From Candidatus Electrothrix yaqonensis (GTDB taxonomy: Bacteria > Desulfobacterota > Desulfobulbia > Desulfobulbales > Desulfobulbaceae), in assembly GCA_047651235.1 (NCBI GenBank), contig CP178758.1, positions 480,001-512,000 of the forward strand: 32,000 nucleotides of DNA. Reading direction: 5' to 3'. The translations under genes were made by a program, and so were the position numbers. Positions 29,159 to 32,000 of this stretch are shown piece after piece. A model generated the notes under the pieces. That model saw only the letters and a list, made by a program, of their open reading frames with translations, was not told the DNA's origin and searched no databases. How positions within the stretch are numbered: position 1 is the stretch's first letter; each line of letters begins with the position of its first letter.

Positions 29159-32000
29159 ATGCAGCTTAACTACCCTACACAGCTCCCCATCACCGACCGC
29201 AAGGACGAGATCGTTCAGGCCATTCGGGATAATCAGGTTATCGTTATTGCGGGCGATACCGGCTCCGGCAAGACAACCCAGCTCCCCAAGATGTGCCTGG
29301 AAGCAGGTCGGGCAGGGGAGGGTACCATGATCGGCTGTACCCAGCCCCGTCGCATTGCCGCCCTGTCAGTCACCGAGCGGGTGCAGGAGGAGCTGGGGCA
29401 GGTCCGGACAGTGGGGTCCAAGATTCGCTTTCAGGATCGCACCGGCCCGAAAACCCGGATCAAGTTCATGACCGACGGGATTCTGCTGGCCGAGACCCGG
29501 GGCGACCGCAATCTACGGGCCTACGACACCCTGATCATTGACGAGGCCCATGAGCGCAGCCTGAACATCGACTTTCTGCTCGGCTATCTCCATCAATTGC
29601 TGGCCCGCCGCCCGGACCTGAAGCTGATCATTGCCTCAGCCACCATTGATACCGAGAAATTCAGTAAGCATTTCCACGACGCCCCGATTATCCAGGTGGA
29701 AGGACGCACCTATCCGGTCACTATGGAATACTGTCCCCCGGATGACGAGGACGATGAAAGCAGTCAGGATATTGACAGGTTGGTTGCGGATCAGGTTGTT
29801 GCGCTGATGTCCCGGCCCGGCGGGGATATCCTGGCCTTTCTCCCCACAGAGCGGGACATCCTGGATACGGTGGCCCTGCTGCGTAAGGAGCTGGCTGACC
29901 GCGCCCTGATCCTGCCCCTGTTCGGACGGCTCCAGGGCGGGGAGCAGCGGCGTATCTTCCGTTCTGCCCATCAGCGCAAGATCATTGTGGCCACCAATGT
30001 GGCAGAGACCTCCATCACTGTGCCGGGCATAGAATGCGTGGTGGATACCGGCCTCGCCCGCATTGCCCATTATAATGTACGGGCCGGGACTACCCATCTG
30101 CCGGTGGCCCGCGTTTCCCAGGCAAGTTGCGATCAACGGGCAGGCCGTTGCGGTCGGATCGGGCCGGGGCGTTGCATCCGCTTGTACAGCGAGGAGGATT
30201 ACCTTGCCCGTGATGAGTTCACCTTACCCGATATCCAGCGTTCCAATCTGGCCGAGGTTATCTTGCAGATGCTCAGTCTTCGCCTGCCTGAGCCGCGCAA
30301 TTTCCCCTTTATCGATCCACCTGCCCCCAGGGCGGTCAATGACGGCTTCCGTATTCTCCGGGAACTGGGCGCCCTTGATGGCGAGCACCGGCTCACCCGG
30401 CAAGGCCGGATCATGGCTCGCCTGCCTCTGGACCCGCGTATTTCCCGGATGATCATCGAGGGTGCGGAGCTGGGTGTGCTCCGGGAAACCGCGATCATTG
30501 CTGCGGCCCTGGCCATTCAGGATCCCCGTGTTCAACCGCCGGACAAGCTGGAAAAAGCCCGGCAGGCCCATCGGGCCTTTAACTATCCCGGCTCGGATGT
30601 CATGACCCTGGTGAATATCTGGGATGCCTGTAGGGGCGAATCCCTGTGTTCGCCCGGATCATCTGATAAAAGGCAGACATGGGGATCTGCCCCTACACCG
30701 TCCGCAGGGCAGCTCCGCCGCTTTTGCGAGGCCAATTTTTGCTCTTGGCAACGGATGCGGGAATGGTTTGATATCTACGAGCAGATTCTCCGTATCCTCA
30801 GGCAGCATAAGGAGTTTGCCTCGGCCTTGGATTGTATGGATGAATCGGGTGAGGGGCCGGGAGATGCCACATCGGACCGTAGGGGCAGACCTATGTGTCT
30901 GCCCAATATGTATAGGGCGAACACGCAGATTCGCCCCTACAGTCAATCGGATGATTCCACAGGGGCAAAGCAGGGTACAACGCAGGCACCCCCTACCGCC
31001 CCAGCTCTGGTCCATCAGGCCCTGACCGCAGGTTTCCTCCGCAACATCGCCCTGCGCAAGGAAAAGAATACCTACCAGATCAGCGGCAACCGGGAGGCCA
31101 TGCTCTTTCCCGGTTCCGGCCTCTATAACAAGGGCGGACAGTGGATCGTGGCAGCGGATTTTGTCCACACCTCGCAGCTCTTTGCCCGCATGGCCGCCAC
31201 GATAGAGGTAGACTGGCTGGAACGTCTGGGTGGCGACCTGTGCAAGCGTTCGTATTCCGATCCACATTGGCAGAAAAAGTCCGGCCAGGTCACGGCCCTG
31301 GAAAAGGTGACCCTGTTCGGCCTGGTCATTGCCGCAGACCGGCGGGTGAACTACGGTCTTCTTAGCAAGAAGACAGCGGAGGAGGCCAAGGATATCTTTA
31401 TTCGGGAGGCCTTAATCCCTGGCGAACTCAGGGGGAAATATCCCTTTCTCGAACATAACCTGGCCCTGGTCCGGCAGCAGGAAGAGCTGGAGGAACGTCT
31501 GCGCAGGCGCGGTATCATGACTGATGAGCAGGTGCTGCACGACTTCTACGATCAGCGTCTGGGGCTGGTGTACGATCGTTTTACCCTCAATCGCTTTCTC
31601 AGCAAGAAGCGGAAACAGGTGAAGTCTGGTGAAAAGGCGGACGGCTTTCTTTGGATGACAGAAAAGGATCTCCGGCAAAGCCAACCGGAAAGTGATGAGC
31701 TGTATCGCTTTCCGAAAACCCTGACCAGTCCCCAGGGCGAGCTGCGCCTCCATTATGTCTTTCGCCCCGGCAAAGAGGAGGACGGTGTGACCGTGGATAT
31801 CCCGGCTTCCTGCTGCCCGCCCCTGTCACCGAACCTGTTTGAGTGGCTGGTGCCCGGTCTGCTGGAAGAAAAGGTGGTGGCCCTGCTCAAGGGCTTGCCC
31901 AAACGTCTGCGCAGGCTCTTTGTTCCCCTGCCGGAAACAGCGGCCCAGCTCATGGACGGCCTGGATCTCTATCAGGGCTCTTTGTACCCGGCCTTGGAGC
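29159..32000 (+). CDS. hrpA: ATP-dependent RNA helicase HrpA (DEAH box), 3' end outside window
   Basis: Frame 2 is open from 29114 to the window end, and it is absent from the ORF track because no stop is reached. Motifs: [60 protein letters not shown]. The HA2/OB region follows ([52 protein letters not shown]). Confidence 0.95.
   Translation, partial: [947 protein letters not shown]
30630..30696. repeat. REP/BIME-like double-hairpin element, copy 1 (inside hrpA)
   Basis: GTAGGGGCGAATCCCTGTGTTCGCCC, 16 nt spacer, GGCAGACATGGGGATCTGCCCCTAC. These are two hairpin units bounded by GTAGGGGC/GCCCCTAC. Confidence 0.85.
30879..30940. repeat. REP/BIME-like double-hairpin element, copy 2, inverted relative to copy 1 (inside hrpA)
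   Basis: GTAGGGGCAGACCTATGTGTCTGCCC, 10 nt spacer, GGGCGAACACGCAGATTCGCCCCTAC. This is approximately the reverse complement of copy 1. Confidence 0.85.

Follow-up and report, generated by a model that had tools for sequence, protein, structure and literature searches.

How did two palindromic repeat elements come to lie inside the reading frame of an RNA helicase gene, and what has become of that gene? The question is raised by hrpA in a 32,000-nt stretch of the Candidatus Electrothrix yaqonensis genome (contig CP178758.1, positions 480,001 to 512,000; hereafter, the window). Our analysis indicates that the two elements are very probably dimers of repetitive extragenic palindromic (REP) sequences, or REPINs (REP doublets forming hairpins), of the family associated with subclass 2.4 of the REP-associated tyrosine transposases (RAYT, or TnpA_REP), and that they are most likely tolerated in hrpA as passenger insertions filtered for reading frame. 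An earlier sequence-only reading of the window had described two inverted REP-like copies within an HrpA frame, and we return to its claims where the results bear on them.

The host gene was identified from its open frame, its Pfam domains and a match to known structures. The plus-strand frame 29114-31999 is open over 962 codons, both elements included. The hrpA coding sequence (29159-31999, +), with its start inferred from alignment to the N-terminus of a homologue (P0019), is partial and runs past the window end. Its product contains the Pfam domains DEAD, Helicase_C, HA2 winged-helix (HA2_N), HA2 ratchet (HA2_C), OB_NTP_bind and DUF3418, and matched the E. coli HrpA structures in the PDB with E = 2e-66. 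The RecA1-RecA2-winged-helix-ratchet-OB core and the DUF3418 C-terminal region, seen in Pfam, in the E. coli match and in the structural model described below, are those of the ATP-dependent DEAH/RHA RNA helicase HrpA. Its nearest relatives are from Candidatus Electrothrix (cable bacteria), and the homologue records that matched were all shorter than 700 aa, many of them fragments. The 182 bp between the two elements (30697-30878, +) are recognisably HrpA, as had been claimed: this ratchet-domain stretch encodes 32 residues that align to residues ~577-607 of E. coli HrpA (FRRLCRTDYLNYLRVREWQDIYTQL / FRRLCRTDYLNYLRVREWQDIYTQLRQVVKE), and the DNA alignment shows it to be nearly invariant across the Electrothrix sequences.

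Each element consists of two hairpin units in inverse orientation. Element 1 (30630-30696, 67 bp) comprises an A unit (GTAGGGGCGAATCCCTGTGTTCGCCC; 30630-30655, +), which exactly matches the cross-phylum pattern GTAGGGGCRRAYCNNNRTGTYYGCC, a 16-nt spacer (GGATCATCTGATAAAA; 30656-30671) and a B' unit (GGCAGACATGGGGATCTGCCCCTAC; 30672-30696, reading GTAGGGGCAGATCCCCATGTCTGCC on the minus strand) that closes the dimer. The spacer is conserved in the Electrothrix strain GM3_4 and is 6 nt shorter in the Electrothrix contig L121. Element 2 (30879-30940, 62 bp) has the opposite order, with a B unit (GTAGGGGCAGACCTATGTGTCTGCCC; 30879-30904, +, a GTAG foot and a GGGCAGAC/GTCTGCCC hairpin), a 10-nt spacer (AATATGTATA; 30905-30914) and an A' unit (GGGCGAACACGCAGATTCGCCCCTAC; 30915-30940, GTAGGGGCGAATCTGCGTGTTCGCCC on the minus strand). 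The A-unit stem is GGGCGAA/TTCGCCC and the B-unit stem GGGCAGA(C)/(G)TCTGCCC; in all four units a GTAG foot leads directly into a G+C-rich stem of 7-9 bp that opens with three G-C pairs, and in a repeat search of the window the unit pairs came up at 71-80%, in direct as well as inverted orientation. Both elements are thus composed as the sequence-only reading described them, and both lie in the single HrpA frame without a stop, read as the two 23-residue peptides it had quoted. The reading phase through both is xGT AGG GGC (CRG... and RRG...), one of the two phases out of three in which the GTAG foot yields no TAG stop. The further claim that the second copy is essentially the first in reverse complement stands for the order and type of the units; the spacers are unrelated, and site 2 is a three-arm composite rather than a simple mirror copy, a third, degenerate arm at 30962-30996 having been overlooked.

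Each dimer folds into a single long hairpin. The RNA energies of elements 1 and 2 are -41.8 kcal/mol (z -5.9) and -35.8 kcal/mol (z -5.4) on the plus strand and -37.7 and -44.9 kcal/mol (z -8.2 for the latter) on the minus strand, with z-scores of -4.6 to -8.2 overall and none of 200 shuffles as stable. GTAGGGGCRRA heads with zero mismatches occur four times in the window, all in the hrpA elements, and a generic search of the window found no further GT[AG]G-footed hairpin above the shuffle background. An Rfam search gave no match at the elements, the sole gathering-level match in the window being a tRNA elsewhere. The elements have 8-bp termini (GTAGGGGC/GCCCCTAC) and no flanking target-site duplication (flanks GATGCCT|...|ACCGTCC at site 1 and CGGACC|...|AGTCAA at site 2), and so are not classical miniature inverted-repeat transposable elements. 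Two further open reading frames (ORFs) noted earlier do exist, at 30624..31025 (+) (133 aa) and 30659..31267 (-) (202 aa), overlapping hrpA in another frame or strand; the stop-poor palindromes keep them open, and gene finders are likely to miscall them as hypothetical proteins.

Two inverted REPs with a short spacer that fold into one long hairpin have the architecture of REPINs, which were reportedly defined by Bertels and Rainey in 2011 as REP doublets with a short spacer forming one long hairpin and are thought to be the replicating unit. They are said to have been defined in Pseudomonas, as extragenic elements linked to group 2/3 RAYTs. In hrpA, by contrast, the arms of a dimer differ in stem type (GAA or AGA) and the copies form part of the coding sequence. 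The bacterial interspersed mosaic elements (BIMEs) of E. coli lie outside genes and combine Y and Z REPs with defined linker motifs, and they are bound by integration host factor or gyrase. The hrpA elements share with them REPs in alternating orientation, but are unrelated in sequence to the E. coli REPs. The earlier label of REP/BIME-like therefore holds for the REP anatomy, the GTAG foot and the inverted dimers, but BIME is specific to E. coli, and REP dimer or REPIN is more accurate.

The foot places the units in the GTAG-tagged REP superfamily defined by Di Nocera, De Gregorio & Rocco 2013 (BMC Genomics 14:522, PMC3733652). In that survey, intragenic GTAG REPs were found in several species, more than half of them as dimers or grouped repeats encoding 20-30 aa and sometimes two per ORF, with enrichment in DNA repair and replication genes and in RNA-binding proteins. 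Additional file 3 of the survey gives its first two rows to Opitutus terrae Oter_0009, annotated as 'ATP-dependent helicase HrpA', in which one REP spans residues 662-668 and another residues 1241-1248; the file also has a DEAD/DEAH helicase that carries a REP dimer (PMC3733652). The hrpA inserts of the window resemble these cases in the GTAG foot, the G+C palindrome, the in-frame dimers, the two elements per ORF and the nucleic-acid enzyme as host. They differ in the host, a cable bacterium of the Desulfobacterota, in belonging to a different REP sequence family, and in that both are dimers, only about 180 bp apart. The sequence-only reading had treated in-frame palindromes as a matter of the Rickettsia palindromic elements (RPEs), and the novelty this implied was overstated because in-frame GTAG REP dimers, even with HrpA as host family, were already catalogued in 2013 (PMC3733652). 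As far as they are summarized in PMC3733652, RPEs (Ogata et al. 2000) are in-frame palindromic repeats tolerated as extra surface segments, with RPE-4 and RPE-6 CGTC-tagged and RPE-1 longer. The hrpA inserts behave like RPEs in being in frame and tolerated, but they are not RPEs because their foot is GTAG, not CGTC; consensus and host range differ as well, and RPEs, in that summary, are neither GTAG-footed nor RAYT-linked.

Evidence that the elements are insertions came from orthologous sites. The comparison set consisted of a protein alignment and a DNA alignment with five Electrothrix contigs (L121-L125), to which the metagenome contig L126 was added later. Both inserts are absent from Electrothrix sp. 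AR3 and from every non-Electrothrix HrpA aligned, and unrelated HrpAs did not align across the two segments, which agrees with the earlier proposal that these are lineage-specific indels. Six other Electrothrix-type hrpA sequences have REPs at these two sites, in at least five configurations and with the frame kept in all. At site 1, the long A-to-B' dimer is present in the window, L121 and GM3_4, and a short 'double-foot' palindrome (GTAGGGGCGATTC(A/G)CGAATCGCCCCTAC) is present in AUS1_2, ATG1 and L126. AR3 is element-free at this site, with the sequence TGTAGAGGC...CGCCTAC; we considered this sequence as a decayed REP and rejected the idea, as it folds no better than shuffles (z -0.7).

Site 2 is more varied. 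It holds an A-to-B' dimer in L121 and ATG1, an A-to-B' dimer with a 67-nt spacer in L126, an A-to-B' dimer with an extra double-foot REP 17 nt upstream in AUS1_2, and a degenerate A unit with a double-foot REP and another upstream unit in GM3_4. In the window, the B-to-A' dimer (30879-30940) starts exactly where the relatives carry an A unit and is followed by a segment (30941-30996) made of a spacer (30941-30961) and a degenerate right arm (30962-30996, GGGGCAAAGCAGGGTACAACGCAGGCACCCCCTAC), translated as 18 residues. In L121, L122, L125 and L126, the counterpart of this segment is the spacer with the B' arm of the A-to-B' dimer, to which it is homologous; site 2 of the window is therefore a three-arm composite of a new B-to-A' dimer and the decayed right arm of an older one. 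The relic arm has lost its own folding (z +0.6), and stem mismatches indicating decay were found in this arm and in the A and B arms of L121.

The reading frame was kept through all of these states. Between common anchors, the site-1 segments measure 87, 81, 63, 63, 63 and 39 nt and the site-2 segments 190, 142, 166, 145, 139, 160 and 70 nt, the latter all equal to 1 modulo 3, so that the frame is maintained in 13 of the 13 measured segments. The whole span is stop-free in each of the five complete REP-bearing sequences, which come from genomes with 76-87% DNA identity. A frame held over so many independent length states is not coincidence, and we conclude that selection keeps hrpA intact.

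The Electrothrix hrpA orthologues all lie on contigs of about 1-2.4 kb, and the GM3_4 contig (L124 1-90) begins inside the site-1 element, which suggests that REP repeats fragment short-read assemblies of cable bacteria. The contig of Ca. Electrothrix sp. AUS1_2 (L122 1-1954, QYKZ01000533.1) is a fold-back chimera: a 3' part of hrpA on the minus strand (1-712, P0014) runs into plus-strand hrpA (700-1954, P0002). The two meet close to the palindromic region of site 2, apparently through an artefact of amplification or assembly at a palindrome.

The predicted structure places both inserts in loops. An AlphaFold2 model of window positions 30224-31420 (399 aa), built with the HrpA protein alignment as input, had a mean predicted local distance difference test (pLDDT) score of 79.8 and a predicted template modelling (pTM) score of 0.78. 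In this model, helices 125-136 and 161-170 are joined by a coil formed by the site-1 insert (model residues ~136-158), and helices 196-209 and 259-274 by a long low-confidence coil (209-254) in which the site-2 insert lies together with the relic (model residues ~219-258). Residues 146-154 and 209-254 score below 50 in pLDDT, against 86-95 in the flanking ratchet helices and the OB fold; the segment between the inserts is modelled as helices 161-170, 175-193 and 196-209. Both inserts are thus predicted to sit in the ratchet (helix-bundle) domain, as coils between its helices and ahead of the OB fold, in line with the earlier suggestion of loops before the OB domain. The alignment shows short E. 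coli HrpA loops at the same places (around residues 565-576 and 608-615), and two unrelated HrpAs (P0007 and P0046) have their own low-complexity insertions of ~60-90 aa at site 1 (alignment columns ~535-620) that do not look like REPs; both places are therefore insertion-tolerant loops, and the site-1 loop appears to be a general hotspot of HrpA length variation. A metal site formed by the insert cysteines (CRGESLCSP) and the native FCEANFC was considered and rejected, as the sister genomes with double-foot REPs are without the second cysteine.

Copies of the same units are widespread, both in other cable bacteria and in many phyla, in agreement with the earlier reading of the elements as a repeat. 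When contigs of a single genome for each species were scanned for the 25-nt unit pattern, at least 120 loci with at least 154 units were obtained in at least 20 phyla, and among the matches listed were Chloroflexota, Acidobacteriota, Cyanobacteria, Bacteroidota, Clostridia, Chlorobium, Planctomycetota, Nitrospirota and the candidate phyla radiation (CPR), as well as the cable bacteria Ca. Electrothrix laxa and Ca. Electronema. Convergent dimers of 47-175 bp were present in 42 of the 120 loci listed and, like those of the window, they often combine two stem variants. Only 9 of the 154 units listed lie in long stop-free spans, and most copies are extragenic, including a dimer in Ca. Electrothrix laxa that sits between two co-directional ORFs; the family is thus predominantly extragenic, and the hrpA copies belong to its known intragenic minority. 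A protein search with the doublet peptides for other Electrothrix copies yielded 9 weak matches and 152 candidates, but it missed even the HrpA orthologues and was uninformative.

Several of the loci tie the hairpin to a transposase. The stop-free spans of loci L048 and L089 match the REP-associated tyrosine transposase family (NCBIfam NF047646; E 4e-17 and 8e-15), and in both genes the stretch from the HuH motif to the Tyr region includes an in-frame REP dimer. When RAYT halves were compared by tblastn with the window and every locus, RAYT-type genes turned up at four loci only (L006, L048, L086 and L089). A search with a Syntrophaceae RAYT gave at least 7990 homologues, many named 'REP element-mobilizing transposase RayT'. 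The peptide VGA[NTH]G[RC][SA]PL follows the HuH strand directly in 107 of the best 120 of these homologues (P0130-P0249) and is also found at L086 4111-4620 (-). It is the translation of a double-foot REP whose stem, GGGGCGAA/TTCGCCCC, is that of the A units of the window. These sequences suggest that nearly every such transposase gene contains a copy of its own hairpin, which may be why the GTAGGGGC foot is conserved across phyla. A CRISPR (clustered regularly interspaced short palindromic repeat) repeat, an attC site, a hairpin of a diversity-generating retroelement and an intrinsic terminator had been candidates for the cross-phylum hairpin and were dropped given the RAYT link and the literature match.

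That literature match is to TnpA_REP subclass 2.4, which corresponds to RAYT group 4 of Bertels (Quentin et al. 2018, BMC Genomics 19:475, PMC6006769). In this subclass, which is scattered over many phyla, the REP foot is GT[AG]G and the stem begins with three G-C pairs; some are 'double-foot' GTAG...CTAC REPs that could derive from an inverted dimer by central deletion, and REPs lie in frame inside tnpA_REP genes, between HuH and Y (PMC6006769). The family described here shares the long REPs, the double-foot REPs, the many phyla and the in-frame REPs in the transposase (L006, L048, L086, L089 and 107 of the best 120 homologues). A REP together with its cognate RAYT in one genome (a REPtron) is seen at these four loci from other phyla; no subclass 2.4 gene was found in the window, and the Electrothrix link to this subclass is through shared hairpin sequence only.

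Taken together, the sequence comparisons indicate that copies of this family landed in two surface loops of the HrpA ratchet domain after the Electrothrix lineage split from an AR3-like lineage, and that the same two loops then apparently underwent repeated REP turnover, with long dimers, double-foot REPs, extra units and the composite of the window as its products. The insertions would have been mobilized by a RAYT acting on single-stranded hairpin DNA, and a resident REP would draw further REP events to the same spot. Selection on hrpA would have purged each frame-breaking variant, leaving inserts that are essentially neutral passengers. Their translation would add disordered loops to the protein, ~22 aa long at site 1 and ~40 aa (dimer and relic) at site 2, in a helicase that presumably stays functional.

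Several points weigh against this account of frame-filtered passengers. The translation of the inserts and the retained helicase activity are read from the open frame and the model, and the neutrality of the inserts is an assumption; Di Nocera et al. argued that REPs may be enriched in nucleic-acid enzymes for reasons other than chance (PMC3733652). Scanning metagenomes with a conserved hrpA block added a single locus (L126), and neither a clean empty site nor a clean pre-insertion site from a very close relative emerged. The tblastn search found no RAYT gene in the window, none of the best 120 of the at least 7990 RAYT homologues bears a cable-bacteria label, and the element copies within the window are those in hrpA alone. 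A more specific version, in which the RAYT system repeatedly replaces, inverts or nests REPs at a resident GTAG foot in the hrpA loops, would explain the five or more configurations at one boundary and the 'new dimer plus old arm' composite of the window; we consider such REP-on-REP targeting possible but rather unlikely. If it did operate, the frame-constrained orthologous sites across cable-bacteria strains would be a natural record of REP/RAYT mobility; according to the literature, the mode of REP spread is poorly understood and tnpA_REP mobility is without formal evidence (PMC3733652, PMC6006769).

Could the hairpins instead have been kept for what they do in the message? The REP dimers might be exapted regulatory elements, retained since stable mRNA or single-stranded DNA hairpins modulate hrpA expression, through ribosome pausing, an RNase entry site or protection, internal attenuation or, in a variant, autoregulation by HrpA unwinding its own message. 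Strong RNA folds (-36 to -45 kcal/mol) would suit such a role, as would the persistence of REPs at both sites in seven Electrothrix-type sequences despite turnover, the two REPs in the unrelated hrpA of O. terrae and the enrichment of REP-bearing genes for nucleic-acid enzymes (PMC3733652). However, spacer and length also vary between genomes at each site, several arms (the third arm of the window, A and B of L121) are decaying as expected of neutral passengers, AR3 lives without the elements, and the same REP family occurs in frame in unrelated genes. A regulatory role is disfavoured because element type, orientation and pairing are not conserved in the sister genomes, and we regard it as improbable. 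That hrpA itself is decaying, a recent pseudogene of cable bacteria with an open frame by coincidence, would fit the gathering of two to three insertions in one gene and the many fragmentary orthologue records. The latter are explained by assembly breakage, as they come from 1-2 kb contigs, one of which begins inside the repeat; the 962 open codons, the frame kept at all 13 site segments, the stop-free span in five diverged genomes and the highly conserved, confidently modelled flanks make a pseudogene very unlikely.

A native, lineage-specific HrpA loop that arose in situ and is palindromic by chance would agree with the length variation of these loops across HrpAs (P0007, P0046) and with site 1 of AR3, which already reads TGTAGAGGC...CGCCTAC. 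But the AR3 sequence is no better folded than shuffles, exact matches to the 25-nt unit occur in at least 120 contigs of at least 20 phyla, the same units are found inside RAYT genes and in the intergenic dimer of E. laxa, and sister genomes hold different REP types at the same site, so this origin is scarcely plausible. Finally, the inserts might have been made during assembly or amplification, for example by a fold-back chimera at a palindrome, and the orthologue contig of AUS1_2 (L122) is indeed such a chimera around this region. Here the chance seems practically negligible: seven independent assemblies, the window and six others, have REPs at the same two positions with diverged sequences, in favour of the sequence-only reading, and the frame and flanks of the window are colinear with E. 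coli HrpA.

The reading as tolerated REP dimers reveals no new kind of system. What is added is a series of orthologous states in cable bacteria, pointing to repeated REP remodelling at two permissive loops; the survey of Di Nocera et al. did not examine orthologous sites (PMC3733652), and the Electrothrix sites show repeated turnover. The series makes hrpA a clear and well-controlled case of an essential-looking enzyme that tolerates REP dimers, showing which HrpA loops take 20-60 extra residues and that only frame-preserving events survived while the same spot was hit or remodelled repeatedly. For cable-bacteria genomics, it illustrates that REP repeats break short-read assemblies and that palindromes spawn spurious overlapping ORFs.

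Some further observations were made on the other loci and on the window. Three more of the nine stop-free spans are ordinary genes with in-frame units in linkers, namely a planctomycetotal PabB/TrpE gene between Anth_synt_I_N and Chorismate_bind (L054 4808-4832), the linker of a cyanobacterial CobA-HemD fusion (L070 6124-6148) and a GH10 glycosidase gene (L008 1026-1050). At five loci from several phyla (L087, L102, L108, L109 and L112), one full GTAG unit is followed by tandem repeats of its loop and 3' arm only, for example AAATAGACCTATGTGTCTGCCC at least five times in a Desantisbacteria contig. In Ca. Electronema sp. KV (L074 ~1345-1470), a ~23-nt repeat (CTTGGTGTAGACACCAACCAACT-like) with internal palindromy, present in several tandem copies, lies directly upstream of a single REP unit, on the strand of the unit, and belongs to a repeat family different from REP. 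The tRNA gene of the window is located at 14853-14927 (-) (Rfam RF00005, 69 bits).

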